This document shows positions 1,370 through 43,838 of a stretch of DNA of 64,000 nt, piece after piece. This DNA comes from Psammoneis japonica. Its lineage: Eukaryota. The notes beneath the pieces were generated by a model, which was not told the DNA's origin, did no database searches, and saw only the letters and a list, made by a program, of their open reading frames with translations. How positions within the stretch are numbered: the first letter of the stretch is position 1; every line of letters starts with the position of its first letter. The stretch spans positions 322,874-386,873 of the forward strand of contig QPGO01000029.1 in NCBI GenBank assembly GCA_008632985.1. The letters run 5' to 3'. The position numbers and the translations under genes were made by a program.

Positions 1370-1561
1370 GAAACTCAACTAAGTTTTATTGTTACCTTGA
1401 CACGATGTACCTGATAGAATAGCAATCTCCCGTCAAAGTTTAGTTCTTGTCTTCACTTTTGTCACCTTTCTCATCTTGAATAATCTTGAAGAATCTCGCT
1501 CCGATATTTTTCGGTGGTTCTCAAAGCTACTGACTGGTGACGGACAGAGCAACTGCATTAA

Positions 1562-2061
1562 GGATGGATCTACGTGCTGCGTTCAGTTTTTTGGGAGCTC
1601 GTAATTTTTATAAAAATAACCCGGATGCATCGTAGTAAATGCGCGCGCGTTCGCAAAAAAAAGTTTCAGCGATCGGTCGAACTTTGTCCGTTCGCCAGAC
1701 ACCCTAGAATGCTTGAACGACAGGTGTGACTATGCGCGACTTTTACCTTAACGACTGTAGATATGTCAATGGCCAGTCAAATGCCACTTGTCGGCATTTC
1801 CCGGAAAGTTGCCGCCAACCTCCCACAAGAAGCCCGACCCCAGCGAAAATTGGCAGTTTTTTCGACCTGACAACAGGGCACAGGTCAACAAGTGGCATTT
1901 GAAGTGCTGAGTGTGCAGCTCTTGTGGCCGTCCAACAGCACCTGTGAGGGTTTGACGAACGCACAAGTGTTCGGGGGTGTTCCGAGGCAGGTCAAAATGA
2001 CACGGTGAAGTGCGGGAAATGCGAGCCATTTTAAATTAGACTGCAGCACGTAGATCCATCC
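1562..2061. mobile_element. Non-autonomous TIR element (MITE) copy 1, Kolobok-like termini
   Basis: TIR GGATGGATCTACGTGCTGC ... GCAGCACGTAGATCCATCC; flanked by TTAA (1558-1561) and TCAA (2062-2065); GG..CC termini with a TTAA TSD fit Kolobok rather than piggyBac (CC..GG). Confidence 0.8.
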
Positions 2062-2086
2062 TCAAAATCCCACCATGACAGCTTGA

Positions 2087-2584
2087 GGATGGATCAGCGT
2101 GCTGCGGTCTGTTTTTTGGGAGCTCGCAATTTTCACAAAAATGACCCGGGTGCATCGCAGCAAATGCGCGCGCGTTCGCAAAAAAAATTTCAGCGATGGG
2201 TCGAACTTTGTCCATTCATCAGACACCCTAGAATCCTCAAACGACAGGTGTGGCCATGCGCGACTTTTACCTCAACCACTGCAGACATGTCAACAGCCAG
2301 TCAAATGCCACTCATCGGCATTTCCCGGAGAGCCACCGCCAATCTCCCCTGAGAAGCCCGACTTTGGTGAAAATCAGCGGTTTTTTCGACCTGACAACAG
2401 GGCACAGGTCGACAAGCGGCATTTGAAGCGCCAAATGTGCAGCTCTCATAGCCGTCCAACAGCCCCCATGAGGGTTTGACGAACGCACAAGCATTCGGGG
2501 GTGTTCCGAGGCATGTCAAAATGATGCAGTGAAGTGTGGGAAATGCGAGCTGTTTCAAATTAGACAAAGCATGCAGATCCATCC
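2087..2584. mobile_element. MITE copy 2 (same family, same orientation)
   Basis: Colinear with 1562-2061 over its whole length; TIRs GGATGGATC...GATCCATCC; flanks TTGA (2083-2086) and TCAA (2585-2588). Confidence 0.8.
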
Positions 2585-3249
2585 TCAAGGCGGGCCATCG
2601 GCTCATTTTTTTCGCACGTCTTTTCCGGGTTTTTATGCGTTTTTGATGGGTCGTGACAGAAAATGACACGACAAAAGCACGAGCGACAATGACGATGTTC
2701 GTGACGAGCGGCAAGCTGCAAAGTGTCGCCTCACGAGGGGTGCTCATTGGCTTTGTTGTCGTCACACAGTTCAGATTGATTTGTGTGCTTTCGTCCCTCG
2801 CGCCACTGGGCCAATTTTGAGAGATGGCGCAATTGCCGTCATCGTCGTGCTTTGATCGCGGTGCCTGATGTTCTCGTTTTTGTGGGCGATCGAACAACTC
2901 TTGCATTTGAAGCTGACAATTGCAAATGAGCGCATTCAAACACATTGCCAATTTTGGGACAAACGTGGAAAAAATGGGTCGGCAGTCCCCCTCAAGGGGG
3001 GTCATCCCCGCGTTTGTCCCAAAATTGCCGTTGCATTTGAACAAGGTTTTTTGCAGTGTTTGTTTTTGAGTGCAAGAATTGTTCACAGTCACACCCGATC
3101 GCACACGAAAACGAGAACCATCAGCACCGCGACCGAAGCACGACGATGATGACAGTCATTGACGTTTCTCAAAAATGCAGTTTGCCGTCCACCAACTTTG
3201 TTGTTGCTGTCATCACTGTTTTGTTTTTGAGCTTTTTTGAAGACATGCT

Positions 3250-4900
3250 TTGACACTTTACAGCCAGCCATGCTGTGGAGGTGTGTTTGATGTGCAGCTC
3301 CTTTTCGCTGCAATGCTCTTTGTCAGCTTGCATTGAGAGTCTTCTTGGTTGGTTGCCAAGTCATTGTTGCGCATTTGTGCTGGTCTCTCAGCTCTGGCTG
3401 CTCAAGCCTCCTTTGAGGCAGGCTGTTGGGAAACAGTGTCATGGCATCTTGGCCTCCAGCTTGCAGCTGCTGATGGTGCCACCCATTGTTGGCCACATGG
3501 AGCAATGCATGTTCACACTGCGCTTGCCAACAACTTTTGTGGAGCATCTTTCCATCTTCACCTGCATCCAATGTCAAATGTTCAAAACACTGGCAAGTTG
3601 CAAAGGATTCTGTTGTGCGTGTTTCTGTGAAGACAACTCTTCCAGTTGTTTGAGCTCCCAGGGTGTGTGGCCTGAGCGCACCTCAGATTGTTTTCAAGAG
3701 AATGAGTTTTGGCTTGGTGATTTAACACCAGCTCTGGATGGTGCTCATTTTGTGATTGTTTTTGTGTCTTCTGTGGGAATCTGTTTGTTTGCATTGTCAA
3801 AGTCCCTGACAGTGTTGCCATGCACTGAGTTGCATGTCACATTGAATTTTGCCCATCCTGTTTCACAGGGCTTGTTTTCAATGATGCAATTTGTCTCTTC
3901 CCAAACAGCACCATGCTTCAAGTTTGCTGTTTTCCATTCCTTCCTGAACAGCACCATGCTTCAGGTTTGCTGTTTTCCAGTCCAGCAGCAAAACATTTGA
4001 TTTCATGTTCAGGGTCATCCTGGAGTGTGTGAGAGTGACAAACTCTGCTTGCTCAATTTTTTGTCTGTTTTTCAGGGAGAGTTAAAATTGGGGGAACACC
4101 ATGAAACACAATTGAGCAACACATTTTCTAGCACCAATTTGCTGATGATCACTGCTGATGTTGACAAGATCAAAATGCTGCAAGTTGTGTCACTGTGCAC
4201 TGCACTGGCACACTGCATCTGACTCTGATGAATGTTGTTGCTTTGTTTTGTTGCAAGGAGCGCCATCAAGGGCTTGCTTGCCATGCTTGAAATCTGACTG
4301 AGTCATCTTTGGCAAATGATTGTGAGTCATGCTGCTCAAAAGAAATCTTGGATCCTTGTGAGCCATTTCTTGCATGACACACAGAGGTGAGCACATTGCA
4401 TCAAGTTTGCAATTGCGCTGTCTGTCAAAAAGGAATTGGCTCAATGAGAAGTTCATTTTGAAAGAAGAGTCTTTTTGTCATTGTCAGTCATGCAACAAGG
4501 AACACATTGGATTGAGGGGTGCACCACTGTCGTGAGACACAGCAGATTGATGGCTGAGTTGTTGTTTGGTGTGTGGTGCCCCACACAACAATGAGACATG
4601 TGCGGCAGACACACTGGAAAAAGCAATGAGCAACTGAGCTGAAGCTCTTTTAAATGAACAAATCAACTCTGAACAAGATGCTGGGCTGCAAAACAAAGCA
4701 CGAATTGATGGCCATTGGAAAAATTGGCTGTCAACCTCAAACAATGACAAGGCGGCACCAGATTTGTGAGACTGACAATGAAGATCCAGCATCAGAACTT
4801 TGTCTGGAATCCAGTTGCAGGGGCCACCTTGGCTGAACTTTGAAAACTTGTGACACCTGTGAAGAGTGCTGTCACAGGTGTGAAAATTTTTGATTTTTGT
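3250..4900 (-). pseudogene. Degenerate coding-like sequence of unknown family inside repeat island 1
   Basis: Chain of broken minus-strand ORFs (e.g. FRKEWKTANLKHGAVWEETNCIIENKPCETGWAKFNV), no Tyr, strongly TpA- and CpG-depleted. Confidence 0.3.
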
Positions 4901-5302
4901 CAATGGATCTTCTCATTGCAAGAGTGAAAAGAACATGTTGCACACAGGGGTCTCCAAAGGTTTTTCTTCCATGTTAAATTGTCTGAGCCAACTGGCAATG
5001 GCAAACTGTGGCATTGTCATCAATGTTGTCAGCAATCAGTTGACCAGTGCTTGGCACCACCAAAAGTCATCGGCCACTCCTGCATGTGGACATTCGAGAG
5101 CCAGGTGTGGGAGCGATGCTGCTCCAATCAAAATGCTCTGTGACCCACATGTTCAAGTCAGACAACTTTGTGATTTTAAGCACAAGCTTGCAGCTGGCCA
5201 ATGGGGGGGGGGGGGCTGGGCAGAAGCACGTGAAAGCCCCAGAAGTTCAGCATGTTTTTCATGCGCGTGCAATCTTTGACACACAACAAACATGAAATGA
5301 AT

Positions 5303-5547
5303 GAGAGTTGGCAGACAGACCACCTCCGTCACAGACTTGTGGCTTGTTGTTTTCACCGCGGTGAAGCACGGTGAAATTCAGGAAAAATCATGCAAAACAC
5401 AAGCCATTCGGCCGAATTCGAGCAATGAGAGTTGGCAGACGGACCATCTCCATCACAGACTCATGGCTTGTTGTTTTCACCATGGTGAAGCACAGTGAAA
5501 TTCAGGAAAAATCATGCAAAACACGAGCTGTTCGGCCAAATTCGAGC
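5303..5547 (+). repeat. Tandem duplication of a ~125 bp unit
   Basis: GAGAGTTGGCAGAC...TTCAGGAAAAATCATGCAAAACAC...AATTCGAGC at ~5303 and ~5428. Confidence 0.85.
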
Positions 5548-5567
5548 TGAAAAAGCAGCAACCTCGG

Positions 5568-5929
5568 CATTGTTGATTGATGGGCTTGTGTTGTTCAAGT
5601 GCACAAAGCAGACATCAGGACGGCCCTCCTTGTTTGTTTTGGACCAAGCACTTTGATTGTTTGCGAAATGGGTGAATGCGGAATGGACTGGCACTGGTCT
5701 CATGCACTGGGCATCCAGTCTGATGCGTCAAGATGTTTTGTCTGAGATGCCAGGATTGCCACCCAAGATCTTCAGCCTGACTTTGAATCTTTTCATTGTT
5801 GACTGACGGGCTTGTGTTGTTCAAGTGCACAAAGCAGACATCAGGACGGCCCTCCTTGTTTGTTTCGGACCAAGCACTTTGATTGTTTGCGAAATGGGTG
5901 AGTGTGGAATGGACTGGCACTGGTCTCAT
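5568..5929 (+). repeat. Direct repeat of ~135 bp (5568-5703 and 5794-5929)
   Basis: CATTGTTGA..GGGCTTGTGTTGTTCAAGTGCACAAAGCAGACATCAGGACGGCCCTCC...GGCACTGGTCTCAT present twice; two ORFs share MRPVPVHS...FVHLNNTSPS. Confidence 0.85.
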
Positions 5930-6487
5930 TCATGATCTCTTGCATTGATTTCATCCAAACTCCAAAAGGTCCCATCCGACAGTGCCACTTGAATGTTTGG
6001 TGCCTTTGACCACATGCGAGTCGATTCGGCCTTGTTCAATCCCAGAGTTTGCTCCCACGTGTCGTGGTCTGGTGCAAACAGGATGCTCTTGCATGTGCCT
6101 TGAATGACAATGATGTGCATGTTGCCGATTCTCTCATGGTCATGATGCAGAGCACCAGAACACTCTGCAGACACATGTTGACCTGGAGCAAGTCTGGGCA
6201 CTTTTGTGTTGTCATCTTGGTTTGGGAATGGGGTGAGGTGAGAAAGGTTTCAACTGTTTGGCCCAGCGCCAAGCCAACACATCCAAAGCAGCCACATGCA
6301 CTTGTCGCAAGATGTGCACCATGACAATTCACAATGTCCTTTCAAAACTGACCCAATCCATGCACGAGCCCCAAATGCAAGTGGGTGGTGCAGAGAGACT
6401 GAACATTTTAAGGCAGCTGCTGGAGATCTGGGTTGGACTCCAATGCACGTGCTTCATGCCGTTGAGCCCAAGAGTGGCCTCTGGAGC

Positions 6488-6958
6488 CGCAAAATCACAA
6501 AGGGCGCAAAATGACCAAGGGCTTGAGATGGCCAAGGGTGCAAAATCACAAAGGGTGCAAAATGGCCAAGGGCGCAAAATCACAAAGGGCGCAAAAACAC
6601 AAAGGGCGCAAAATGGCGGCAAAGGGTGCAAAATCACAAATGGCGCAAAATGGCCAAGGGCACAAAATGACCAAGGGCGCAAGACAGCCAAGGGCTCAAA
6701 ATCACAAATGGCACAAAATGAAGGCAAAGTGTGCAAAATCACAAAGGGTGCAAAATTGCAAAGGGCGCAAAATGACCAAGGGCACAAGACAGCCAAGGGC
6801 TCAAAATCACAAAGGGCACAAAATGGCGGCAAAGGGTGCAAAATCACAAAGGGCACAAAGTGGCCAAGGGCACAAAAACACAAAGGGTGCAAAATGGTGG
6901 CAAAGGGTGCAAAATCACAAATGGCACAAAATGGCCAAGGGTGCAAAATCACAAATGA
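6488..6958 (+). repeat. Complex modular minisatellite, block 1
   Basis: 17-20 bp units AAGGGYRCAAAAT + CACA / GGCC / GACC / GGCGGCA. Confidence 0.95.
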
Positions 6959-7250
6959 GGCTGGCCACACGAAAAGGTGCTGATGGAGCTCGAAACAGCT
7001 CGAACGGTCAATTTTCAGGTGTGGACACCAACAGAAAGCTCTTGTCGCACATGTGTTGTTTGTCAATTCCCATTTCCTGATGAATGGAGGCTGATTGAAC
7101 ATTTCAACAGTCAAAATGGTTTGTTGCAAAACACATTTGCACATGAAACATGGTTGTTTGTCATGCGACTGCGCTCTGCGCGCTTTTTCTCAACAAATGT
7201 TTTGGGAGCTCGAGAGCACCCGTTGGCACCTTTTCATGTGGCCAGTCTTA

Positions 7251-9925
7251 AATGGCACAAAATGACCAAGGGCGCAAGACAGCCAAGGGCTCAAAATCAC
7301 AAATGGTGCAAAATGGCAGCAAAGTGTGCAAAATCACAAAGGGTGCAAAATGACAAAGGGCGCAAAATGGCCAAGGGCACAAAATCACAAAGGGCGCAAA
7401 TGGCCAAGGGGCAAAAATCACAAAGGGCTCAAAACCACAAAGGGTGCAAAATCACAAAGGGTGCAAAATTGCAAAGGGCGCAAAATCACAAAGGGCGCAA
7501 AATGACCAAGGGCACAAAATGACAAAGGGCACAAAATGGCCAAGGGCGCAAAATCACAAAGAGTGCAAAATGGCGGCAAAGGGTGCAAAATCACAAAGAG
7601 CACAAAATCACAAAGGGCGCAAAATGGCGGCAAAGGGTGCAAAGTCACAAAGGGCACAAAACAAACAAGGGCACAAGATGGCCAAGGGCGCAAAATCACA
7701 AAGGGCGCAAAATGGCAGCAGAGGGTGCACAAGACAGCCAAGGGCTCAAAATCACAAAGGGCGCAAAGTGGTGGCAAAGGGTGCAAAATCACAAAGGGCG
7801 CAAAATGGCCAAGGGCGCAAAATCACAAAAAGGGCGCAAAAACACAAAGGGCGCAAAATGGCGGCAAAGGGTGCAAAATCACAAAGGGCGCAAAATCACA
7901 AAGGGTGCAAAATGGTGGCAAAGGGCTCAAAATCACAAAGGGCGCAAAATGACCAAGGGCTTGAGATGGCCAAGGGCGCAAAATCACAAAGGGTGCAAAA
8001 TGGCGGCAAAGGGTGCAAAATCACAAAGGGCACAAAATGACCAAGAGCTTGAGGTGGCAAAGGGCGCAAAAACACAAAGGGTGCAGGGTGGTGGCAAAGG
8101 GTGCGAAATCACAAAGGGTGCAAAGTTGCAAAGGGCGCAAAATCACAAAGGGCACAAAATCGCCAAGGGCACAAAATGGCCAAGGGCACAAAATGGCCAA
8201 GGGTGCAAAATCACAAAGGGCACAAAATGACCAAGGGCACAAAATGGCCAAGGGTGCAAAATCACAAAGGGTGCAAAATGGTGACAAAGGGTGCAAAATC
8301 ACAAAGGGCGCAAAAAGACCAAGGGCACAAAATGACCAAGGGCACAAAATGGCCAAGGGCGCAAAATCACAAAGGGTGCAAAATGGCGGCAAAGGGCAGA
8401 AAATCACAAAGGGTGCAAAATGGCAGCAAAGGGCGCAAAATCACAAAGAGTGCAAAAACACCAAGGGCACAAAATGGCCAAGGGCGCAAAATGGCCAAGG
8501 GCACAAAATCACAAAGGGCAAAAAATGACCAAGGGCACAAAATGGCCAAGGGCACAAAATCACAAAGGGTGCAAAATGGTGGCAAAGGGTGCAAAATCAC
8601 AAAGGGTGCAAAGTGGCAGCAAAGGGTGCAAAATTGCAAAGGGCGCAAAATGGCCAAGGGCGCAAAATCAAAAAAAGGCGCAAAATCAAAAAGGGTGCAA
8701 AATCACCAAGGGCTTTGGATGGCCAAGGGAGCAAAATGACAAAGGGTGCAAAATGTCGGCAAAGGGTGCAAAATGACAAAGGGCACAAAATGGCCAAGAG
8801 CTTGAGGTGGCAAAGGGCGCAAAAACACAAAGGGTGCAGGGTGGTGGCAAAGGGTGCGAAATCACAAAGGGTGCAAAATCACAAAGGGCACAAAATGGCC
8901 AAGGGCGGAAAATCACAAAGGGTGCAAAATGACCAAGGGCACAAAATGGCCAAGGGCACAAAATCACAAAGGGCGCAAAATCACAAAGGGCGCAAAATGG
9001 CAGCAAAGGGTGCAAAATTTCAAAGGGCGCAAAATGGCCAAGGGCACAAAATCAAAAAAAGGCACAAAATGACCAAGGGCTTGAGACTGCCAAGGGCGCA
9101 AAGTCACAAAGGGTGCAAAATGGCGGCAAAGGGTGCAAAACCACAAAGGGCACAAAATCACAAAGGGTGCAAAATGACCAAGGGCTTGAGATGGCCAAGG
9201 GAGCAAAATCACAAAGGGTGCAAAATGTCGGCAAAGGGTGCAAAATTACAAAGGGTGCAAAATGGCGGCAAAGGGTGCAAAATCACAAAGGGCGCAAAAT
9301 CACAAAGGGTGCAAAATGACCAAGAGCTTGAGATGGCAAAGGGCGCAAAATCACAAAGGGTGCAAAATGGCGGCAAAGGGTGCAAAATCACAAATGGTGC
9401 AAAATCACAAAGGGCGCAAAATCACAAAGGGTGCAAAATGACCAAGGGCTGCACAAAATGGCCAAGGGTGCAAAATCACAAAGGGTGCAAAATGGCGGCA
9501 AAGGGTGCAAAATCACAAAGGGTGCAAAATGGCTGCAATGGGCGCAAAATCACAAAGGGAGCAAAATGGCGGCAAAGGGTGCAAAATGGCCAAGGGCGCA
9601 AATCACAAAGGGTGCAAAATGGCGGCAAAGGGTGCAAAATCACAAAGGGCGCAAAATCACAAAGAGTGCAAAATGGCGGCAAAGGGCGCAAAATCACAAA
9701 GGGCACAAAATGGCCAAGGGCACAAAATGACCAAGGGCTTGAGATGGCCAAGGGTGCAAAATCACAAAGGGTGCAAAATGGCAGCAAAGGGTGCAAAATC
9801 ACAAAGGGCGCAAAATGACCAAGGGCGCAAAATCACAAAGGGCTTGAGATGGCCAAGGGCACAAAATCACAAAGGGTGCAAAATGGCCAAGGGTGCAAAA
9901 TCACAAAGGGCGCAAAATGACCAAG
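7251..9925 (+). repeat. Complex modular minisatellite, block 2 (~2.7 kb)
   Basis: Same 17-20 bp units in shuffled order; the source of the many repetitive ORFs in the track. Confidence 0.95.
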
Positions 9926-10099
9926 GAGTTGCTGTTTCAGCAGGTGCATGACATTCACAGCTCCTGAAATTGACAGTCACAAGCTTTCCAGGGATCTCTT
10001 CCGGTGCCTCACTTGCATCCAAGCACGCGTTGACATCATTCCGCGACAAGCTCCGGTGCTGTGAAGTCAGCATTTGCAGGTCCATCTTGCATTGTCTTG

Positions 10100-12520
10100 G
10101 CAAGTTGCTGGGCTGGCCATGATCCCATCACAACAAATGTGCACCGATGTGTCACACTCAATTGCGCTGACTTGTCCATGACGTCTTGCACCCAACCAGT
10201 GCATTGTGATTTAATCTGTTGCGCAGCAGACTCGTGCCGGCTTCGTGTTGTGGATGGAAAAGAGTGCTTCCTTCCATTCCAACCAGCGGTGTAGGAGCTT
10301 GGGGTGGCTTGAGCTTCTTGGGAGAAGGTCGTCCTTCTCTGTGCTCATGCTGGTCCTCTGGGTCCCATTTCAAGGTCTCAATTGGTGAGTCACCTTGGAT
10401 CTTGTGGTGCTGAATCATCACCTTGTAGTCATCTGACATCCACTTGTCTCTTGGCTTTTGCTTGATTGCCTGTGCCCTCTCCCAAAGTGTGTTTTGGTCA
10501 TTTGTCCTGTTGTTGTCCTTAATTGCTTCCTGAGCATTGTTGTGTTTGACACAGAATGCTTCCTGCTCAAGGACATCCCCGTTCAAATGAACTCACCCAG
10601 CAGCGTAAAGTTTCCCACTTGTCAGTTTCTTTGTCCTGTCATGCATTGCAAGTGACCTCTCACCTGCCTTCCTCTTCTGCTGCCATTTGGCCTTGGCCCC
10701 TTCCGTGTTGGCACGAGCGAGAACAACCACCATCTCCTCTGCTGCTGAGCTGTCCAACACGTTCAAGTCTTGCAGCATCTCCCATTTTTCTCAGGAGCAA
10801 GGGCTGGAGACAAGGGTTGATGTTGGCTCTTGTTGTTGGGTCTTGTCCTTCGTTTTGAGGATTTCTGGGTGGCTGAGGCACTTGCAGTTGGGTGGATTCC
10901 AGCCGCATTTGGCAGTGGCATCTTTGCTCCCATCTTCATTGGCAAAGCTTCCATTCCAGCCTGCGTTTGTGGTGGGTGTGATGTCCAACTTGCGGCCATC
11001 AATGGGCAGGTTTGTGGCTCTCTTCAAAGCAACTTGATTGGCTGCATGCACCCAACAGCCAATCTTGAATTGGCCATTCTGCTGGCTGCTGTCCCCCAGT
11101 TGCCAAATGTGAGCACCACACGGAAGGCCAAGACACATGCACCACTTGGTGAGTTCATCATTGATGCACCTGAGAAGCTCCAGATCAAACCTTGTGCCAT
11201 GGCCATCGATCATTGCATGAGGAACGGGGCCTCCCTCAACTCGTGGAAGGATCTCCAACTCGTCAAGGTGTCGAAGAATGTCTGCGAGCATCTCTCCCAT
11301 TGTGCCTGCATGTGGAGACACGGTTGCACAGCAAGGCACACGCTTTTCTCAAAAGATGCACTCAGGTCCACCTGGCATGAGCTTTCCTTTCCCAGCATTT
11401 GCACGCAGCCAATCACTGGCCAAACCATTGTGATCAGAAACATCATCGCAGTCGGCAAACAAATCACATCCTTGACTGTGCAACAGAGGAAGATCTCTCT
11501 TTTCACCCTTCACAATGACAACGCAAAGAACTGGTTGCCCATTTGCTGCAGTGAAGCCCATGGTGGTCCATGGAATGTTGGTTGTGGCGGCGGTCTTGGT
11601 GGCCTTCGATCCCTTTTCCGTCATGACTTTCTCGGTGGAGCGATTGCTGCCAACACGCTGATTTGTGTCATTCCCCACCTCATCTGCCATGAGCAAGCAC
11701 TCAGGATGCTTCATCTTGCATTTCGCAGCATGCCCGTGTGCTTTTTTCTCTGTTGACACTTCATCACCCTGCTTGTCAAGGAATGCGGCCTCCTCAACTT
11801 TGTCCAAAATTCTTGCTTCTTCTTGAAGGCACTCGCAAATTGAGTCGTGCATGAATTTGATGTTGTCGTACATCGCCCACTCCTGCCGATCCACGGAGAA
11901 GCCTTTGGGGCATTTTGCATTGACTCTGTCCCCACGCCAATTCATGAAGCCTTTGCAGTGCTTGATGCCGAGTTCAGCATGTGGATTCTGTGGGTCGGAA
12001 GGCTCGAATCCACGGCGAACCTTTTTCCATTCAACGACTCGCTTCTCGACTGCAGTGCCTTCAATTGGAGAGTTTGCCATTTCCAAAAATTTTTTTGCTT
12101 TGCTGGAGCATTCAGTTGTGCCATTGAATGACAATGTCCAAGAAGCATGCTCTCGACGTCTTGCACCGGTGATGTGCGATGCCCAGTCGTGAGCCGTTGT
12201 GGTGCCTGCTGGGTTGCTTGCATGCAGCTCGATTTAAGATGGATCTCTCCGGCATTTGGGCTGACTCGTCAATCCCATGCTTTACTTTTGCTTCTCCAAT
12301 TGTCTCCTTCAATGTGCCTTTGGGCAATCTCTCTTCTTCGCCATCCTTGAGGAGCTCGCGACATCGAATGAGTTCCTCAGTGGCCCAAACCTTCGCCTCT
12401 TCCAAGTCACTGTCCCTTTGCGTCATTGCTTCTGCTGTGGCTCCTTTGGGTCTTCCTCCTTTGCTTTGGTTTTCAAGTGGTGGAGGGTTGTTGTCATTTT
12501 TGGGTCCTTCCTTTGCTCGG
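10100..12520 (-). pseudogene. Pogo/Tc1-mariner-like DDE transposase, frameshifted and hypermutated
   Basis: Fragments HPECLLMADEVG, WTTMGFTAANGQPVLCVVI, PGGPEC, AMIDGHGTR, LGLPCGAHIWQLGDSSQQNGQFK resemble the DDE_1 catalytic core; candidate terminus near 13195-13245 (two TAAGGACTCARTTC repeats, then TTTTTTACTGG-TA); partner TIR not found. Confidence 0.8.
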
Positions 12521-13491
12521 GTGTCTTCGTCAGAGACAAGTGCGGCTTGCTCTCTTTTCCCACAATTTTTGATCCATGGTTGAATTCGTCACACGTTCCA
12601 AGTTGTGCCCAGAGAGCAATCCCTGCACAAACCCACGTGGAAGGCAATTGGATCCATTCTTGGATTGTTCTTCCAATGCAAGCGACACAGCCTTTTCCAG
12701 GTTTTCTTTGTGGATTTGGTCGGTGATGTTGACAAAGTGACAAGAAGGGCCGACCGACGTTTGTTGCTGTTGATGCGAGGAGAAGGCACTGGCGACACAA
12801 CACTGATGGTTGAAATAGATGAGGAAAGTGGGAGACTTGGACGTCGCAGTCTCTGACTTCTCCTTGTGGGAAGCAACGACGAAACGAGCGCCATGGTGAC
12901 AGTGTCGATTTGTGGTTGGAACGTTGGCGTCAAATTCAAAAGTTTCAAAATCAACGAAGCAGTGCGAGGAGTGATGGCATATGATGTACGTGTCTTAACT
13001 TTGTTGAATCTCGTTTTCGCGTTCAAAAACACAAACGACCATGTTCGACGGCAACGGGCAGCCGGAGAAAACTGAAACACCCAAATCCAAACACATGGTC
13101 AGAAGCAGCAGCAATCGAAGATTGTCTCAGCAACTAAAAAACTTTGATTACTTGGTTTTTTCATCATTTTATGGATCGATTCAACATGTGGGTCGGATAA
13201 GGACTCAGTTCAGTCATAAGGACTCAATTCGGTTTTTTACTGGTAAATCTCCTGCCAACTTCAACTTTTCCCGCCTCGATTTGAATTTCGATTGGCGCAG
13301 ATGGAGGTAAACAGCCACTCTAATGTAACAAACTAAAACTAGAACATGTGAAAATGCTTAGTAGCTCTCTCTAGCTCTAGCTAGAGGGTGCTTTTACTCT
13401 ACGAGATTAGTCTGCTGACGCTTCGACAAACGTGAAAGGAAGGAGGTGAAGCCCGCAACAAATGCTTCGAAAGTGTGCTAATACTTACTCT

Positions 13492-27335: not shown

Positions 27336-27539
27336 ACCACAAGGACGGGAACACTTTCACTTTGCATTGTATTGTCGGGCCTATATCAAATTCAATAAGA
27401 AACATATGAATACAGCATAATCAATTTAGTGAAACCTAAAATTAGCCTCTCGCTATGATTGGACAGCATTAGTTGATGCGCGAGCAAGTGGCGGAAAAAT
27501 TGGGCTAGCATCGCGGATGCTGCTCTGGTGTTTATGTTC

Positions 27540-29030
27540 AAACCTCTCGTCTTTCATCCAAGCGCATCATTGCCCAAAGAAATGATGGCACACACAGGTT
27601 GGACAGAAGCAAATGTGTCAAGAAGAGGGAGCTGGGTGAATGGCAAACATTGTTTGATGCAAGCTTTGTGGTGGAAGCATGCCAGTTAAAATGCACTGCA
27701 TGCAGCCATGGTCAATTTTGTTCCACCAACACTGCTCATTGACCAAACCAAGGATTTGGAGACTGAGCTCTCTTTCTCACTCACTGACATGGCACAGGTG
27801 CTGATTGCACCCATCTCGGGGGGGGGGGGGGCAGCAGAGTTGCATGAGTGAGGTGTTCAGTGATCTCCTCATTGTGACAAGCCAACCACCAATGTGTTCA
27901 CAGTGTTGAGCGAGGCTCAAGATGCTGAAGGGCTTGTTGAGGCAGCTGAGAAGCCACTGGTGACACCATGAGTTATGGGAGGCATGGTGCAGAGGAGCAC
28001 AAGGTGACAAAGATGAGTGGAGGATGCGGCTGCAAGCAAAAACTCACTCTTGAACTCATCAACATGTTGCAGCACAACATTGATGAAAGAAAGGAATGAG
28101 CTTGCTGCAGCTTGTGTGGCAATCACAGGCTTGCGTGCTGCTTCTGTGTCAGCCATCTGATGCAGAAGCAGATTGCGGAAGATGACACCCCCCATTTGCA
28201 CAGGGGGAGGCACAGACCACCATCTCTCATTGGTCTCCAATCTGTGCCAAACAACCAACGGGTCAGTTGCCCTCTGTTGCTCTTGACTCTCCTTTCCTCT
28301 GGTGACTGATGTGCTCTTGGACAAGTTCCACATCAAGAGCTGTCTTGCACTGTGTTGATGTGAAGTGGCTCCAGCAGCGTGCCCAACAATCAAGCAACAA
28401 CTGGGGCAAGACTGCGTGCAACTTTGATCCCCAACTGTGTGAGAACGTGTCACCCCAAATGAGTCAAATGTACAACAGCAGTCCACAATTGCAACACACA
28501 AATTATTCCAGGTGCTTTTTGTTGAGTGTCAAGTCAACCCATCATTGTGCATGATGTGAAACATGCAAAACAACCAACTGCAAGGATGAGAGATGAGACT
28601 GGAGATTGACTTTCCCAGCTGCTGCAAGGGTGCATCACCAAACAAGCCAAAAGCACAATGATGGTCAAGAATTGTTGTGTGCAAGTCATTTCAGGTGCTT
28701 TTGTTGGCTGTCAAGTTGATCTGCCGTGTGCAAACAATGTGAAGTGGTGCCAGCAGAGTTCGCAAATGACCAGAGCAAAGCACTGGCTCATGTCGCCCCC
28801 ACAGCACAATCCATGCTCCTGGCTCAGTCCACATCACTCACAAAGTTTCAACACAGTGAATGACAGAACGTCAACACCTTGCTTTTAGAACATGATGCAA
28901 AACAAATGGCTGTGAGAAAGACAAGGGCAGACAACACCCTCCAAAACATCAAAGCACGACGCTGCACCACAAGACGCACAACTGCAACTCGTCAACACAC
29001 TGACTGTTTTCACCACAACACCACATGTTG
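27540..29030. repeat. TpA/CpG-depleted repeat island 2 (unidentified decayed element)
   Basis: Almost no TA dinucleotides, Tyr-free fragmentary ORFs, internal diverged repeats (CAGGTGCTTTT..GTCAAGT at ~28510 and ~28692). Confidence 0.6.
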
Positions 29031-31407: not shown

Positions 31408-31756
31408 GCTCTGTAACATCTTTCAATCATGGGGATTAGCCCTTCGGTGTAAACATGGTGCATGTCCTTCTAGAAGCTGTCATCCGGCATTTCCTAGCCA
31501 CAGAAGATGGCTCGCAGCATCTGAGCGATAGTCCTACAATCGTACCACGTCGCATTCGACAACGTCGTAGCGCAATGTCAAGTGGATTGAACATTTTGAA
31601 CCATTGTCCAAAACCCATAGACCAAACTCGCAGAAGAATCAATTGAAAGGGCCAAGGAACCGCTCTGGATTGGACAAGGATGATTGTTTGCATTCCCAGC
31701 AGGTGGATTGCAATTTGAAAGCTCAACCACCCTTGTTTTCAGTGTGGCATTGTGTG

Positions 31757-34700
31757 CACACATGTTGAAGTGATGCAAACAGCAAAAGGAGTGCCCCCTG
31801 CGTTGCCTCATTTTGCAGCTGCAAAAGCCACTCCTGAAGCACCTTTGCTGAGCTTTGTCTGACTCCTTAGGGTGTGGGGTGACAAACTGTCTCCAGATCA
31901 AGAACAGCTGCTCTTGAGCTTGTCCAGCATGCAGCAGCAGTTGTGCAAAATGGCAGCAAATGGAGAGAAGCAGTTGGTTGCATTTTGTGCATGCTGTTTT
32001 GTTCTCCACTTTTTTTCTGATGCTTGAGCCATTTGCAAGGACAAAACAATGCAAAGCAAACATCAACTTGCTGCAAAGCACAAAAGAGCAGCAGTGACTC
32101 CTGAGCTCCTGGCAAAGCTCTGGCTGACAGTGTGGCCAGTGCCTTTCTTGTGCTGCAGCCACTGCAGAAACCAAGTGACCCCGAGAGTTCACTGAGCTTG
32201 CATCTCTCCATTTGCAGGGAGCTGTGGAAAAACACAGAGAAAGCAAAGCTGGCTGAACATGGACATGATGTGCCTTGGCACCCTGCAAGTGAAATGTGCA
32301 GAGGTCACTCTGTGCTGTGACCATCCATCTGTTGAACGGTCTTGACAAGTTGTCCATGAATGCTTTCTAAAAATTGTGGGAAAAGCTGCGATTGACTGCA
32401 GCCACAGTGTTCAGGTTTCTGTCATAGAATTTCTTCAAGGTGTCAACAATCCCGGTCATTTGAATCTCCCAAATCTTGCTTCTAATGATGTGATTATGAT
32501 GCAGAAGTTTGCTTCACTCTTCCCTTCCACGATTCATGTGAATGCTTTGAATCGCAATCCACCCAATCATGCCGAAGTCAACATGGCAAAATGCACCAAA
32601 CATTGATCCTTTCAAACACATGAGGCACTCTTTGCATGGCGACATTCCCATTCACATGAATCTGTGTGATGGGAAAAGGACCAAAAGATCTTTCTTCCGA
32701 CTTGGTGGGATCATCTGTTTTGACCAAAACCTGTTGCCCGACACAACAGTCAAAAAAACAATTTTTTGAGATTTTGCCGATGCAAGTTGTCATCAATCAA
32801 CACTTGTTGACAATCCCAAATGGCAACCAGATCTGCAATGAGAGGCAAATCAAGAAACATGTCTCTCTGGCAGATGAGAGCTCCTGGTGAAATTCCCAAG
32901 ACTCTTGAGGCAGCACATCATAGACTGTGCATGGTTGTGGCCAATGCGTTGTCAACAATTTGCTGAGCTTCCATCACATTGTAAGGAGGATGTCCTCTGA
33001 CTGCAGAGTTTGAATGATGTTGCCAGCTGTCTGATGCATTCTTTTGCAAATGGCATTGGCTTGAGGATTTCTGGTGGTGGTTTCTGCATCCTTGATTCCA
33101 GCCCTTGCCAACAGAATCTGAAATGGTTCACCAACAAATTCACTGCCTTTGTCATGGATGCAACGGTTTGGTTTTGGACATCTTGCCAACCAACAATTAG
33201 CAAACTTCATCTGCACATGATCTGAAGTCTTGTTGTCAGTGCGAACCAATTCAACAAGGTTAGAAACACTGTCAATTGCAGTTGGCACATTGAACTCAAC
33301 TTTTTGTTCTTGCATTTGTGTTTTCCAAGGACCAATTGAATCAATGGCAACTTCATCCCAAGGAACCAAAGGGACTTCTCTTGGTGGCAAGCAACTGCAT
33401 CCCACTCCCCAGAGCTTGTTCCTTTGGCATGTGTTGCAATGACAATTCTTGACCAATCGGCACAATGATGGATGGTGACAATGCATGCAAATCGTGCAGC
33501 AGAGCTTCTGCATGCCACAGTGCCATAAAACTTGATGATGCCACCTGACAATGGGTGCCAACAAAGCTGTTGGCAAAGCAATTGCCAATCATTGTCTTGT
33601 GCGTTGACATCAGGTCTCCAACAAATCAATGGAACTCCACCGATGTGTCAAGTTGGAAAATGAAGCAGACTCCTTTGTCGCTCTTGACTCAGCTCACAAT
33701 CTTCAAACTGAAACAACCTTTGCATGTCAGGACAATTCATGGGGTGCTGCATCTCTTCTAGACTTGGACAATTCAAAAAGCAATCCACCAATTCTTGATC
33801 TTGAATGGTGCAGAGTGGGGTGCTCAATTCTGGACCCAAATTTTCTTCAAGCGATTTGTCTTCTGGAGCCATGGCAGTTGGGGAGGAACAGAAAAATCAA
33901 CAATGGTGCCTTTCGACTCCACATCAGAACTCTTCCCTTCCACGGTTGCTCTCCACATGAAGAAATTGTGAAAAGAAATCAGCTGGAAATCAGCTGGAAT
34001 GTTCTCCTTGCCCTTGATGCATGCAAACTTGGGTGCAAATTCTTCGAGAAAAAGGCGCCAACGAAGCACTCGTTGTGTGTTTAGCATCTTGAAAGTCAAA
34101 TTCTTATGATCCACAAACACTGCCATGTCAGCTTCCAAAGATCTGCAGCAAGCATTTCTTTTTCCATGGTGGAGCAGTTCTTCTGGGCTGCATTGAGTTT
34201 TCGGGACCAACACGAGATCAGCTTGCCATTCTGTGTGACAACAGCACCGAGCTGATGATCACTTGCATCTGTGTGAATCTGCCAAGGAAGGTTATGATCA
34301 GGGTGAGCAAGCGACACATCACCCACCACAATGGCCTTGATCTCCTCAAAGGCTTTCTGACAAGCTGGGGTTCATTCAAAATGTTGCTTTCTGGTCAAAT
34401 CCATTGGCGGCACCAAAGCATGAGATCGCTGAGGCCACATGTCACGACAGCAAGTGACGGCTCCAACAAAAGATCTGAGTTGTGTGTGGTTCTTGGGAGG
34501 AGCAAGTTTGAGCACTGCCTCTGCTTTCTTCTTCCAAGGCTTGACACCTTCCAGAGTCATCCAATGTCCCAAAAAATTGGTTTCTTGAACGGCCCATTTG
34601 CACTTGAGCAGATTCACTTTCAAGCCGTTTTGCTCTGGTCATTGCAATGTGGCACTCAACACAGCCAGATGCTCCAACCATGCCACCGAGAGGAGACCAA

Positions 34701-37700
34701 CATCATCAATGAAACAATCTGCATCAATCTCATTCATCACTTCTTCAATGATGGCTTGAGCAACATCTGTCACCGGCTTCAAACCCATTGTGAGTCGACA
34801 ATGTCGAAACTTGCCACAAGGAGCAACAACAGCACACAACTCCTTGGACTCTTCATCAAGCTCCAAAGCACAACAGAACATGGACAAATCCAACTTGGGG
34901 GAAATGCTTGCATCCTTTTCTCTTCTTGACAATGTCTTGAATTCTTGGCAAAGGACACATTGGCCCTTTTAGTGCCTTGTTGAGCATGCAAAAATTGGAC
35001 ACCCATCGCACTCGCTGATCCTTTTTGGGAATGATGAACAAAGGAGATGCCCAACAGGTGGGGCCACAAGGCCTTGATGCTTCCATCTGAACAAGATGCT
35101 GAAGCTCTCTCTTGAAAATCTCTTCATGAACCTTCGGGACTGAGTGCTGTCGAGCATGAACCGGAATTGCACTGGGATCAATTTCCAAGTGGACCAATTC
35201 ATGTGGATGCCAACCCAATTTTCCATCAAACACCTTCAGGAACCTGGCCAGTGCTTGCTGCAATTCCAGTTGCTGCTCTCTTGACAGACATGTTTGCCTC
35301 TTAGCTGCTTCTTCTAGAGATGCTGCTGACTCACATTTGGCACCCAGAATTTGCGTGGTGAGTGAATGAAACTTGATCTCGTTGATTTCTTCTTCTTCAA
35401 CTTCTGGACCTGCAAGAGCAAAGTGAGCATTTTCTGCATTGTCCCAAAAGGTAAGTTCCTTCATGGGTGTGGACTTGCCCAACCACTTGACTGTCCTTGA
35501 TGAAAAGTTCACATCAATTCCCATCTTGGTCAAAAAATCCGATCCAAGAATCACATCGTAACGGCACGGCATTTGAAATGTGAGAGCCCTTTGAAAATCA
35601 ATGCTTCTTGATCTGTTGAATTCAGGTGGCACAATCATCTCCAAACCAACTGCTCCATTGCTCTTCATTGGTCCTGCAGCTGTGTTGCATGCTGCTGTCT
35701 TCTTGAGCAGGCTTGGAGCAGCTCCACATGCCAAACATTGCTCGTGAACAAGAGCAGTTGCACTGCCTGAATCAAACAACATTCTTGATGAACGAGAACA
35801 GAGTGAGCTCCATTCACTTGTTTGCATGCAAGGACTGATGCAGGTGCCATGTCAGCATTCATGCTTTTTACATTGGGCACCGGCATGCCACCACAATTCA
35901 ATCCCATTGGCTCTTCTTGATTTTTCTCATTCTCCATGTTGCTTTCATGTGACAAACATGTGTCATGTGAAGGTTCATGTTCAATTGGTGCATTTGTGTC
36001 AATGGCAATGACATTGTCAACTTCAAAGCTGACACCAGGACTGGAGCAGCACTCCAAGCTGGATCACAATCCAGGTCCTCTTAGACATGGACCTCATCTG
36101 ACATCCACTCCTCCTGACGTCTTGTCAGGACCTCCTGGCAGACCACAGCCTGCCATGTCAAAGTGGCGCACATCTGCACCCCACTCTTGTGACTGCGCAT
36201 CAGTCAGAGAAGCTTGTCAAGCTGGGTGAGCATTTGGTTCTTCTGAACTGCTCTGCACCTGACATTGGTTTGCACAAAAATTCTGAGGCAAATTCTGCTG
36301 ACCGCATCCTCGGCCCACACTGTTCTGGTTGTAACCACGGCCATGTCCGCCTTGGCCACATCCAAAACTGTTGTTGGGGGTGTGTCCACCATCGCCACAT
36401 CCATGTCTCCAGCACAGTTGGCATTCTGAGGGCCACAAAATCAACCTCCATGGTTTCCTCGGCCTGGACATTGGTTGCAACCTCGCCCACAACCTGCATC
36501 TCAGCCTGCACTTGGCAAACCTTGGCCACCCCTCTGAAAATGAGGATTTGGATTGCAACTGGGACTCTTGAGATTCTCCCTGCAATTTCACCACAAAAGA
36601 GGTGCTGCAGAGTCCTTGTGCAATCAACAACAGGAGTCGGGACCAAACTTCTTCTTGTTCCCGGCAGAATCCACATCTCCAGCTCTGCACTTCTTGGGCT
36701 CCTCTTCAGACTTGCCAGAACTTTTCTGATCAGCAAATCCTTTCTCATTGGACACATGCTGAGTGACATCTTCTAAGGAATCAGTGCTGACATCCTTTCC
36801 AGCATGCACACAACTCTGCTTCCACATCATCGGCATTCCCATGAATGTGTTGTTCTTGATTTGTTGCTCATTGAGCAAAGGCTCAGTTCCTGGCAGCTTG
36901 TTGGCACAATGTGACATTTGAATCATCCTGTCAGCATGCTCATGAGGAGAATCACCAAAGGGTTTAGAGAAGTTTTTTTCAAAAATTCAAACATCGTGTC
37001 ACGTGCTTGATGATCGCAGTGTCACTGATGGAAGCACGCAATTTCCGCATCAAACCTGGCCATCATCCGATCTGCTCCTGTGGTGCCTGAAACCAAATTG
37101 CTCCATGCGTCTTGAGTGTTGTCATCCAGTGCTTCTTCACAATGGGTGAATTTTTCAGGCCCTTCATCACAATCCAAATGCTCGGCACAGTTTTCAAATC
37201 ACTCTGCAGTGCAGAGCAAGCACTCAATGCCACACTTGCCGGTGAACTGAGGGCACATCTTCTGTTTCTTAGCACCATCGTCACAGTTCTGCACAAGTTT
37301 CACTTTGTCCAAATCTCCGTGCTTGGTGAAGGTTGATTTGTGCACAAAGCACGGTGCTCTCAATGAGGCTCTCACCAAATGCGACATTGCGTTTGAGGCA
37401 AAGAATGCACAGCAAAGAAAAAAAAGGAAAGAACAAGACACAGTGTGATCACAGTGAATGGTCTTGACAAGCTGTCTACAAACACTTTCTAAAAATCATG
37501 GGAAAAGCTGCGATTGACTGTGCAGCCACAGTGCTCGGGTTTCTGTCACAGAATTTCTTCGAGGTGTCAACAATCCCGGTCATTCGAATCTCCCAAATCT
37601 TTCAGCTGATGACACAATCATGATGCAGAAGTTTGCTTCATCTGTCTCCGCTCCACAGCCACCCATGCTGCAGCACAGCAGCCTGTGCACCCAAACACTC

Positions 37701-38368
37701 CACCCTGTGGAAAACATGCACAGCTTGCAAGCTTGGGCTCTGTTGTGCAACAAAAAGAGGGCAAAGCTGCTTGCCCCAGCTTCTGCTTTGTGCCAGGCCA
37801 CATGCACCCCACCCCTGCCAGACCTTGTGGGAGCTCTCTGGCTGGCCAGCTGACAGCCCAGGTGAGCTGTGTGCCAATGGCGGCAAAGGCTCTGGCAAAG
37901 AAGGAGCTTCTTGTGACAGCATTGTGAGCAGAGGGGTGTGCAAAAAATGGCGACTCTGGTCTTCTCATGGCCAAAAGCTGGGCACTGCTGCATGACAGTC
38001 AAGTTGCTGTTTTTTGGCCATTGGCGGCTTTGCGCTTTGGCCTCTGTTTTGTCTCATTCAAGCAAAATCAGATGGCGGCCATCCAAGTGTTTGCTCCTCC
38101 TGTTTGTCTGGCTGCCAGATTGGCTTTTGTAAAAGCTCTCTCTTTTGCACCATCATCTTGTGAGCCATGGAGATTTTTCAGAGCTTTTGGTGGCTTCCAA
38201 TCTAGTTTCCAAGGGGTGTGCTGAGGCAGATGAGATCTGGGCATTTGAGATCGCTTTTGACTTTTCAACATGCAGTCAAGGGAATTGTGGAGCGCCGTCT
38301 CTCATTCGCCCAATGACGCTCGCTGTGCACAAGAACAGGCACAGCACACACGACTCACTGATTTTGCC
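31757..38368. repeat. ~1.3 kb dispersed repeat, copy A, split by the Gypsy insertion (31757-32332 + 37641-38368)
   Basis: Both halves align colinearly with the uninterrupted copy at 42464-43685. Confidence 0.8.
32333..37640 (-). mobile_element. Full-length, inactivated Ty3/Gypsy LTR retrotransposon
   Basis: LTRs 32333-32516 and 37455-37640 (TGAA...TTCA); 5-bp TSD TCTGT on both sides; polypurine tract GGAAGGGAAGAG next to the 3' LTR; order gag-like, protease (LFDSGS), RT (WASPLFIIPKKD, FIDDV), RNase H ([11 protein letters not shown]), integrase (VAIDSIGPW, IHDKGSEF, NPQANAIC, GPF). Confidence 0.95.
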
Positions 38369-42105: not shown

Positions 42106-42463
42106 CATGTGGCTCTTCATTTCCAATTGTGTACAATTGTGCGCCAAACTGCTTTTGCTCTATGATGTATCATCCCACGAGCTCAATTGCTGGTTCGAAA
42201 TTTTGGACTGCTTCACTGCCGTGTACGCACTGCCACAGTGGAGATCTAACACGAGATAACAAATCGTGGCGGTTTCATTCTACCACATCTTTGTTGGTTG
42301 TTGGGCACCATCAGTTTTTCTCTCTGATTCTTTGCATGGCTCCGACGTGTCATCTACATGGGCGCACCACAGCTGGCCACTTGTCTCTTGTTCACAAAAC
42401 TTTGGCGCCCTTCCTCTGCATGTGAGTGCCACAAGGCATTGCATCTGTTCTCTTCACTGTCCA

Positions 42464-43685
42464 CACACATGGCGAAGTGACGTAAACAGCCAAAGGAGTG
42501 CACCCTGCATTGCCTCATTTTGCAGTTGCTAAAGCCACTCCTGAAGCACCTTTGCTGAGCTTTGTCTGGCTCCATGGGGTGACAAACTGTCTCCAGTTCA
42601 AGAACAGCTGCTCTTGAGCTTGTCCAGCATGCAGTCATTGTGCAAAATGGCAGCAACAAATGGAGAGAAGCAGTTGGCTGCATTTGTGTGCGCTGTTTTG
42701 TTCTCCACTTTTTTCCCCTCAAGTTGAGCCAATGCAAAGCAAACGCCCACTTGCTGCAAAGCACAAAAAAGAGCAGAGGTGGCTCCTGAGCTCTTGCCAA
42801 AGCTCTGGCAGACAAAGCAGCATGCACCCATGCCAGAGGCGGCAATGAAGTGCCTTTCTTGTGTTGCAGCTGTTGCAAAAACAAAGTGACTTCAAGCCTG
42901 CGCTGAGCTTGCATCTCTCCAATTGCAGGGAGTTTTGGAAAAATGCAGAGAAAACAGAGCTGGCCAAAGATGAGTGTGAGCACTCGTGCCCTGCAAGCAC
43001 AGTGTGCAGAGGTTGCTCTGTGCTGCAACCATCTCCACATCCACCCATGCTGCAGCACAGCAGCCTGTGCACCCAAGCACTTCACCTCTGGGGAAAATGT
43101 GCGCAGTTTGCAAGCTTTGGCTGCGGCACGCAACAAAAAGCTTGCGAAGCTGCTCGCCACAGCTTCTGCTGCTTTGCCAGGCCACATGCACCCCACCCCC
43201 ACTCAGACCTTGTGGGAGCTCTCTGGCTGGCTGGCTGGCAGCCCAGGTGAGCTGTGTGTGCCAGCAGCAGCAGCAAAAAAGCTCTGATGAAGAAGGAGCT
43301 CATTCTTGTGACAGCTTTGCTGTGAGCAGAGGGGCACACAAAAAAAAAAGCTCTGGTCTCATCATGGCAAAAAGCTGGGTGCTGCTGCATGACAAACAAG
43401 TTGCTGTTTTTGGCCATTGGTGGCTTTGTGCTTTGGCCTCTGTTTTGTCTCTCATTTGAGCAAGTTGGACGACATCCAAATGTTTGCTCCTCCTCCTGTT
43501 TGTCTGGCTGCCTGCTTGGCTCCTGTGCACAAAAACTCTCTTTTGCACCATCATCTTGTGAGCCACGGAGATCTTTGAGAGACTTTGGGAGTCTCTGCTT
43601 CCCCTCTAGTTAGCCAGGGTGTGCTGGCTGAGCGAGCGAGATCGCAAGAACAGGCACAGCACACAAGACTAACACTGATTTCGCC
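42464..43685. repeat. ~1.2 kb dispersed repeat, copy B (uninterrupted), TpA-depleted island 4
   Basis: Shares e.g. AAAGCCACTCCTGAAGCACCTTTGCTGAGCTTTGTCTG and CAAGAACAGGCACAGCACAC with copy A, same orientation. Confidence 0.85.
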
Positions 43686-43838
43686 CAGTCCAAGAGCAGA
43701 GAGCGCTACCCCGCAAAATTCGCATTTCGCATCAGCATTCAGCATCCCTTTTGATGTCTTTTGTGTGTGCAATACCCAGTGCTTTCGGTATTGTTGCCTA
43801 CCTTTTCTATCAGCAACGCGAAAGGAAGAATTGATTCG

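Follow-up and report, generated by a model that had tools for sequence, protein, structure and literature searches.

Twin copies of a miniature transposable element point to TpA-to-TpG/CpA conversion in transposon-rich blocks of a stramenopile genome

In a window of 64,000 nucleotides (contig QPGO01000029.1, positions 322,874 to 386,873), two copies of a miniature inverted-repeat transposable element (MITE) lie in direct orientation, at 1558-2065 and 2083-2588 when their 4-bp flanks are included. The two copies differ mainly at dinucleotides related to TA, and the edge of a domain almost devoid of TA falls within the first of them. The features of the locus are as follows, with the strand given where one was assigned and with observed/expected ratios abbreviated as o/e.

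1558..1561: left flank of copy 1, TTAA, intact; the sole flank of the four outside the TA-free domain
1562..2061, plus strand: MITE copy 1, 500 bp, putatively non-coding, bounded by terminal inverted repeats (1562-1580 and 2043-2061)
2062..2065: right flank of copy 1, TCAA, taken to be a TTAA in which T became C
2066..2082: spacer between both insertions, 17 bp, without TA
2083..2086: left flank of copy 2, TTGA, taken to be a TTAA in which A became G
2087..2584, plus strand: MITE copy 2, 498 bp, with 4 TA (o/e 0.14) and 30 CpG kept (o/e 0.90)
2585..2588: right flank of copy 2, TCAA, common to the adjoining repeat that begins at 2589
2589..3200: adjoining multi-copy repeat, TA-free and CpG-normal, with a long imperfect palindrome at 2815-3174

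The similarity between the two copies ends exactly at the 4-bp flanks, and the MITE termini are GGATGG...CCATCC. The terminal inverted repeats extend over 23 nt at 96% identity in copy 1 and over 22 nt at 91% in copy 2. The initial annotation had reported the flanks as TTAA, TCAA, TTGA and TCAA, and indeed we find these at 1558, 2062, 2083 and 2585; all four fit T[TC][AG]A, for which the chance with four random 4-mers is ~6e-8. Contigs of one sequencing run, aligned to 1458-2690 at an identity of at least 80% (648 pieces), have a summed depth of 2000-5700 over the MITEs compared to 65 in the unique flank (30-90x), and thus the MITE family is multi-copy. The summed depth over the adjoining repeat is ~2100 at 2592-2675. 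No further MITE copies were found in the window, either by blastn with word size 7 or by a search for the end motif, and when the stretch 1300-3400 was compared to RNA families (Rfam), none matched within the MITEs with an E of 0.1 or below. Similarly, metagenome contigs scanned with an internal MITE 26-mer gave no match; a scan with a 20-mer from the MITE end gave a single match, of 24 nt; the contig was unrelated and similar nowhere else, and we treated the match as chance. In the adjoining repeat, the arms of the palindrome are 59-77 nt long at 70-81% identity, the identity is 81% over 384 columns with transitions ignored, and the RNA-family search gave only sub-threshold microRNA-hairpin matches, at 2948-3028.

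The two copies differ at 71 of 506 aligned sites, and 61 of these differences are transitions compared to 10 transversions. Indeed, the copies are 86% alike in full letters and 97.7% alike over 511 columns if purines and pyrimidines are collapsed. The differences are concentrated in a particular set of dinucleotides: 61 of the 71 are within the 260 sites of TA, CA, TG or CG dinucleotides, and 10 are within the other 246 sites (Fisher P = 8e-11). Thirteen dinucleotides are TA in copy 1 and CA or TG in copy 2, while the opposite arrangement is found once (binomial P = 0.002), and at these 13 sites copy 2 has CA 11 times and TG twice, a strand bias (P = 0.02). For example, GTAATTTTTATAAAAATAAC (1601-1620) in copy 1 is opposite GCAATTTTCACAAAAATGAC (2126-2145) in copy 2, CGTAGTAAAT (1631-1640) is opposite CGCAGCAAAT (2156-2165), and ACTGTAGATATGT (1755-1767) is opposite ACTGCAGACATGT (2279-2291). 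A further 13 sites are reciprocal, with CA in one copy and TG in the other, such as CTTGTCGG/CTCATCGG (1787/2311) and AGTGTTCG/AGCATTCG (1966/2490). The string pairs and the reciprocal pairs that had been pointed out in the initial annotation were all present in the sequence. We do not claim a TG bias of copy 1, since counting reciprocal sites produces one as an ascertainment effect. Finally, 26 CpG are common to both copies, and 11 sites have CG in one copy and CA or TG in the other. The two copies by themselves give no direction of change, and we therefore polarised the differences with outside evidence.

The first such evidence is position. Copy 1 contains 16 TA, of which 13 are at 1562-1762 (from 1571), none are at 1763-2031, and 3 are at 2032-2051; from 2052 to 3400 there are only 6 TA. 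The absence of TA from 1763-2031 places the edge of the TA-free domain within copy 1. If the loss of TA is saturating, TA should face CA or TG to the left of 1763, and reciprocal pairs should be found to the right of it. Indeed, 11 sites with TA in one copy only and 1 reciprocal pair lie to the left, while 2 and 12, respectively, lie to the right (Fisher P = 2e-4). Similarly, the only intact TTAA (1558) is outside the domain, and the three flanks inside it are TCAA, TTGA and TCAA. The spared left 200 bp of copy 1 are ~180 bp upstream of the start codon of ESF1 (minus strand, open reading frame (ORF) end at 1378), and an active promoter may set the edge of the domain. Since these 200 bp were spared even though they belong to a multi-copy repeat, repetition alone appears not to be the trigger. 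Between 1763 and 3200 the sequence is TA-free with normal CpG (12-18 CpG per 250 bp), and from ~3250 both TA and CpG are depleted; because the footprints of the two depletions differ, they are probably produced by separate processes.

The domain that begins within copy 1 is the first of five such islands in the window.

1763..12750: island 1, the TA-free domain, with 0-4 TA per 250 bp throughout and CpG depleted from ~3250; holds a purine-rich satellite
27450..28950: island 2, TA- and CpG-depleted, intergenic, between the PRPP synthetase and sulfatase genes
31450..38250, minus strand: island 3, a degraded Ty3/gypsy-type retroelement with reverse transcriptase, RNase H and integrase
42150..43700: island 4, a copy of the retroelement-flanking repeat (42455-43597 matches 31748-32326 and 37613-38199)
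47100..48650: island 5, TA- and CpG-depleted, intergenic

The five islands comprise 22.4 kb, in which the o/e of TA is 0.065 (96 TA), that of CG is 0.375, and those of CA and TG are 1.72 and 1.69. The loss of TA is restricted to the islands: TA density is 4.3 per kb within them compared to 38.7 per kb elsewhere. The o/e of CG is near 1 outside the islands and 0.13-0.5 in their cores. The islands occupy intergenic gaps, and their content is made up of the satellite, the Ty3/gypsy-type retroelement, the repeat found in two islands and the multi-copy repeat from 2589. The TAs that survive in the islands (the borders of which are crude, with some surviving TAs at the edges) favour a context of pyrimidine, TA, purine (Y-TA-R; 45 of 96 compared to 259 of 1595 outside, P = 2e-11), including TTAA, which is the most enriched, as well as TTAG/CTAA and CTAG; by comparison, ATAT accounts for none of the 96 surviving TAs in islands and for 137 of the 1595 outside. 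This context pattern may be the sequence rule of the mutator. A one-sided context rule, in which the target TA is followed by a pyrimidine, fitted only 6 of 12 events as a predictor of CA versus TG and was dropped, which leaves the two-sided pattern among surviving TAs.

The second line of evidence comes from other copies of the MITE family in the sequencing run. The polarity at single sites rests on 40 listed differences, of 189, between the window and the other family copies, and the site counts that follow refer to these. At three of the four listed sites with TA in one window copy and CA or TG in the other, the family reads mostly TA (2134, 59%; 2273, 63%; 1926, 63%). Similarly, the four listed reciprocal sites all restore TA, and not CG, in the family: these are 1771 (G>A, 56%), 1826 (C>T, 56%), 2447 (C>T, 61%) and 1841 (C>T, 58%), the last together with 2366 (G>A, in four of four contigs). 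Thus, ancestral TA is favoured at seven of the eight informative TA-class sites. Of 187 listed places, 90 have C or G in the window and T or A in the other copies, and 53 have the reverse.

The third line of evidence is the retroelement of island 3, which can be compared at the protein level with relatives from elsewhere. Its minus-strand polyprotein has Pfam matches to RT_RNaseH_2 (1.7e-19) and RVT_1 (7e-7), with rve (0.012) below the cut-off, and it has 249 homologues at E ≤1e-5, the best at 3.7e-196. We aligned it with the top 50 homologues and scored the columns in which at least 60% have Tyr. In the 20 columns of this kind, the island retroelement has no Tyr, but has 9 Cys (TGY), 6 His (CAY) and 5 other residues, while 244 of 422 columns with another conserved residue retain it (P = 6e-8 compared to Tyr). 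The Cys and His residues imply that TAY codons became TGY or CAY. Similarly, Ser (TCA) stands in place of a conserved Leu in three cases, and Pro (CCA) in three others. Two host genes served as controls: of their conserved Tyr, the sulfatase retains 14 of 18 (P = 3e-7) and the PRPP synthetase exon three of three. Pfam searches of read-through translations of the other four islands found no family, and thus the tyrosine test rests on one retroelement. The direction from TA to CA or TG, as the initial annotation had proposed, is therefore supported by the family copies, by position, by the flanks and by the protein outgroup.

Several further observations concern the islands and the sequence around them. 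A 186-195-bp direct repeat (32333-32525 and 37455-37649) is found just inside the stretches that flank the retroelement (31748-32326 and 37613-38199), and the matches of these two stretches overlap by ~43 bp on 42455-43597. We considered the ends of the retroelement as long terminal repeats (LTRs) that could serve as an integration clock, but only the 186-195-bp repeat is common to them and the flanking layout is puzzling, and we do not claim true LTRs; the flanking repeats may be LTRs or the result of nested insertion or rearrangement. In island 1, small tandem and dispersed repeats at 5300-5547 and 5568-5932 differ by transitions only (12 of 124 and 5 of 136 sites), with no transversions. 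The satellite at ~6300-9950 is purine-rich on the plus strand (as shown for 7900-9100), with an AT skew of 0.4-0.6 and units of ~21-24 nt, and one position in it varies as GGG[TG/CG/CA]CAAAAT, which resembles CpG decay caught across many copies. The genes of the window, which include ESF1, a sulfatase, an aldo-keto reductase, PRPP synthetase (ribose-phosphate pyrophosphokinase), a ZW10-like gene and others, have long exons and few short introns. Among named relatives, the PRPP synthetase exon is closest to those from Nitzschia (87%) and Triparma (86%), followed by Ectocarpus (70%) and Phytophthora (65%), and thus the host is a stramenopile close to diatoms; protein searches found no protein identical to one of the window's own. 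There is an assembly gap of 363 N within 59001-60000, and the bin 58001-60000 has a GC content of 0.37, perhaps lowered by the Ns.

The explanation that best accounts for these observations as a whole, and one that we consider probable, is a near-complete conversion of TpA to TpG or CpA in transposon-rich blocks, directly in chromosomal DNA, with the two elements being separate insertions of one multi-copy, TTAA-duplicating MITE at the left border of a block of transposon and satellite sequence 11 kb long. The loss of TA acts on DNA, because a cut-and-paste element, its presumed host-DNA flanks and a satellite are all affected, and this supports the earlier proposal of change in chromosomal DNA, in an element with no RNA intermediate. 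The domain edge at ~1763 in copy 1 would have left the ancestral TAs in place in the left 200 bp and in the left TTAA, while the right part of copy 1, the whole of copy 2 and the three other flanks would have lost theirs. Where both copies were hit, each ancestral TA would have turned into TG or CA independently, which would yield the reciprocal pairs. A slower and separate decay of CpG to TpG or CpA, of the 5-methylcytosine type, would act in the island cores. Part of the differences between the copies is due to CpG decay and to a few transitions outside TpA. We infer an enzymatic agent that targets silent, transposon-rich chromatin, and we tentatively put forward adenine deamination in TpA (A to inosine, which is read as G) as the likeliest of the possible mechanisms.

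The question of whether the flanks were once TTAA target-site duplications is part of this explanation, and it was examined in the loose ends of the family matches, that is, in the positions where contigs begin or cease to match the window. Among the loose ends listed (the table holds 141 further rows), the match begins exactly at 1558 in one contig. Five other copies end their match at 2062, and the consensus that follows begins with TAA, such that these copies read TTAA, while four other contigs match TCAA through 2065. Six contigs start their match at 2083, and eight start at 2587, where the preceding consensus ends in TT, such that other copies read TTAA-GG. The initial annotation held that all four flanks had been TTAA duplications; the five copies that give TTAA at 2062 and the intact TTAA outside the domain favour this, but TTGA...TCAA also extends the inverted repeat perfectly, such that the duplication is not certain. 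The element is consistent with a TTAA-duplicating MITE and, like piggyBac-type MITEs, it is short, putatively non-coding and present in many copies, carries terminal inverted repeats and has 4-bp flanks compatible with TTAA. PiggyBac termini are 5'-CCC...GGG-3'. The MITEs described here differ in that they lack such termini and have GG...CC instead, and in that three of their four flanks are degenerate; no piggyBac transposase partner was seen among the ORFs of the window.

A number of observations weigh against the explanation given above. The sequencing run and the assembly may share one sample, in which case the run is not independent. Only 4 of the 14 sites with TA in one copy and CA or TG in the other are among the differences listed, and at one of these, 1731, 91% of the family depth has C where copy 1 has TA, such that the family majority, by which the initial annotation would have judged the direction, agrees with it at three sites and contradicts it at the fourth. 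The shares at the supporting sites are just 56-63% (except for 2366, with four contigs), and thus the family is polymorphic there. There are also A:T-to-G:C changes outside TpA, at 1819, 1839, 1840, 2150 and 2253. Moreover, of all contexts in the islands TTAA resists loss best (14 of the 96 TAs that survive, compared to 42 of 1595 outside), yet three of the four flanks have changed. Finally, three of the four ends read TTGA inward and extend the inverted repeat, and the flanks could therefore be termini of the element itself rather than target sites.

Among the rival explanations, the one that stands up best is that mutation strikes the thymine of TpA, for instance through hydroxylation to 5-hydroxymethyluracil or a base-J-like base that mispairs with G, with no deamination of adenine. 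Thymine modifications prefer TpA in some protists. At the palindromic TpA, a change from T to C and one from A to G are indistinguishable from sequence, and the strand bias of copy 2 is allowed by either model. Adenine deamination is favoured by the authors of a report on the alga Bigelowiella natans (Mettrop et al. 2026, bioRxiv 10.64898/2026.01.13.699255), who base the choice of an ADAT2-like adenine deaminase on comparison of sequence and predicted structure only. We regard modification of thymine as unlikely, while acknowledging it as a serious competitor.

It is also conceivable that most of the differences existed between the source copies beforehand and were inherited from them, in which case the pair would carry the history of two sublineages rather than a record of local mutation. 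Some of the differences between copy 1 and copy 2 may indeed predate insertion, and the family is polymorphic, with shares of 56-63% at many sites. Both copies differ alike from the family majority at 1663, 1768, 1838 and 1933, which assigns them to one sublineage. However, the 4-bp flanks are taken as host DNA that was changed in place, and the loss of TA tracks chromosomal position, with its edge at 1763 inside copy 1, rather than the identity of the copy. Since the unrelated adjoining repeats and the satellite are equally depleted, we consider inherited divergence a distinctly unlikely source of the pattern.

A third possibility is that the reciprocal TG/CA pairs arose from ancestral CpG, by deamination of 5-methylcytosine on opposite strands, and that the loss of TA is a minor side effect. 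CpG decay has certainly left traces in the window: the family has CG where one window copy has CA or TG at 1855, 2218 and 2368, the same polarity is found in the adjoining repeat at 2636, 2647 and 2654, and the CG depletion of the island cores is in keeping with such decay. There is one C-to-T change polarised against the family at 2219, and at 2417 copy 2 has CG where 93% of the family has TG. An origin from CpG would require decay to be saturated, but 26 CpG are intact in both copies and 11 persist in one; from these numbers, independent decay in both copies would be expected at ~1 site, not at 13. Together with the listed reciprocal sites, which restore TA in every case, and with the stretch 1763-3200, which is TA-free yet CpG-normal, this makes a CpG origin quite improbable.

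The remaining two explanations are weaker still. In one, the direction is reversed, such that a process like fungal repeat-induced point mutation (RIP) turned CpA and TpG into TpA in copy 1 while copy 2 remained unmutated. Fungal RIP is strong on closely linked duplicates. The two copies alone permit both directions, and the family depth of C at 1731 agrees with the reversed one, but the other seven of the eight informative sites point the opposite way, the repeat-rich islands are TA-free rather than TA-rich, the retroelement has Cys and His where its homologues have Tyr, and the reciprocal pairs of the TA-free right half are left unexplained; a reversal is thus very improbable. The other, an artefact of sequencing or assembly caused by the miscalling of modified bases, draws on the probable methylation of the islands, but is hardly credible given that 107 of the 648 contig pieces have an identity of at least 99% to the stretch, that a contig of 7958 nt is identical across the flank and the beginning of copy 1 (1458-1615), that every site is a clean CA or TG, and that the same signature was obtained from Illumina mutation-accumulation data in another alga, B. 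natans.

Conversion of TpA in chromosomal DNA, as we favour it, bears on questions that the MITE pair makes testable. The best-known examples of directed mutation of selfish DNA are fungal RIP and the APOBEC and ADAR systems of animals, and the TpA-erasing type was reported in 2026, in one chlorarachniophyte and mainly for two viral inserts. The pair provides a built-in comparison of before and after, and the domain edge is resolved to a few bases, which makes this an unusually clean natural record. How far the system is spread, what marks its targets (the state of chromatin rather than repetition) and which sequence rule it follows, a rule that would narrow the search for the enzyme, all become open to test. 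There is also a warning for annotation, as transposon proteins in genomes of this kind will lack tyrosine and escape profile searches.

Among the known systems, hyper-editing of double-stranded RNA by ADAR resembles the changes described here in that clustered A-to-G changes are made with a preferred 5' U or T, but ADAR acts on RNA and reaches the genome only via retro-copies, whereas here a cut-and-paste element, its presumed host flanks and a satellite are affected. Decay of CpG through 5-methylcytosine matches the CpG-to-TpG/CpA changes in the island cores and at several MITE sites, as well as the low CG of the islands, but it leaves the loss of TA unexplained and has a different footprint at 1763-3200. 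Fungal RIP is likewise transition-only and dinucleotide-specific, ruins transposons and produces sharply bounded blocks of odd composition; it differs in that RIP makes TpA from CpA or TpG, whereas here TpA is destroyed and the repeats are TpA-free, and in that half of one repeat copy was spared here.

The closest counterpart is the hypermutation of B. natans. There, 231 of 302 nuclear mutations in a mutation accumulation experiment were in two integrated viral regions, and 230 of these 231 were A-to-G or T-to-C, all at TpA; 124 clusters that are TpA-poor and rich in CpA and TpG were also found, and an ADAT2-like deaminase was proposed (Mettrop et al. 2026, bioRxiv 10.64898/2026.01.13.699255). 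The two systems are alike in the conversion of TpA to TpG or CpA, in the foreign or selfish nature of the DNA, in clustering, in the enrichment of CpA and TpG, in acting on DNA and in running counter to a GC-to-AT bias. Indeed, A:T-to-G:C change at TpA and confinement to clusters of selfish DNA enriched in CpA and TpG are both found in the window, while exclusive targeting of TpA is not, given the CpG decay and the five A:T-to-G:C changes outside TpA. The systems differ in the host, which is a rhizarian (chlorarachniophyte) there and a stramenopile near diatoms here; in the targets, which are inserts of giant viruses and virophages there and MITEs, an LTR retroelement and a satellite here; in the extent of depletion, with a Rho of 0.45 for the insert of a nucleocytoplasmic large DNA virus there and a TA o/e of 0.065 over 22 kb here; and in that CpG is also depleted in the island cores here; the process was observed as new mutations there and is deduced from sequence comparison here. 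A full-text search of the literature, in a collection that is incomplete, found a single report of TpA-erasing mutation, the B. natans preprint, and the window thus appears to add a second lineage for this newly described kind of hypermutation. More speculatively, and with somewhat less than an even chance in our judgement, a TpA-erasing DNA mutator targeted by chromatin to transposons, satellites and integrated viruses could be an old genome defence common to stramenopiles and rhizarians, a mirror image of fungal RIP, in which the sparing of Y-TA-R and the erasure of ATAT would be the fingerprint of the enzyme and the reach would be set by borders of silent chromatin sharp enough to cut through a 500-bp element.

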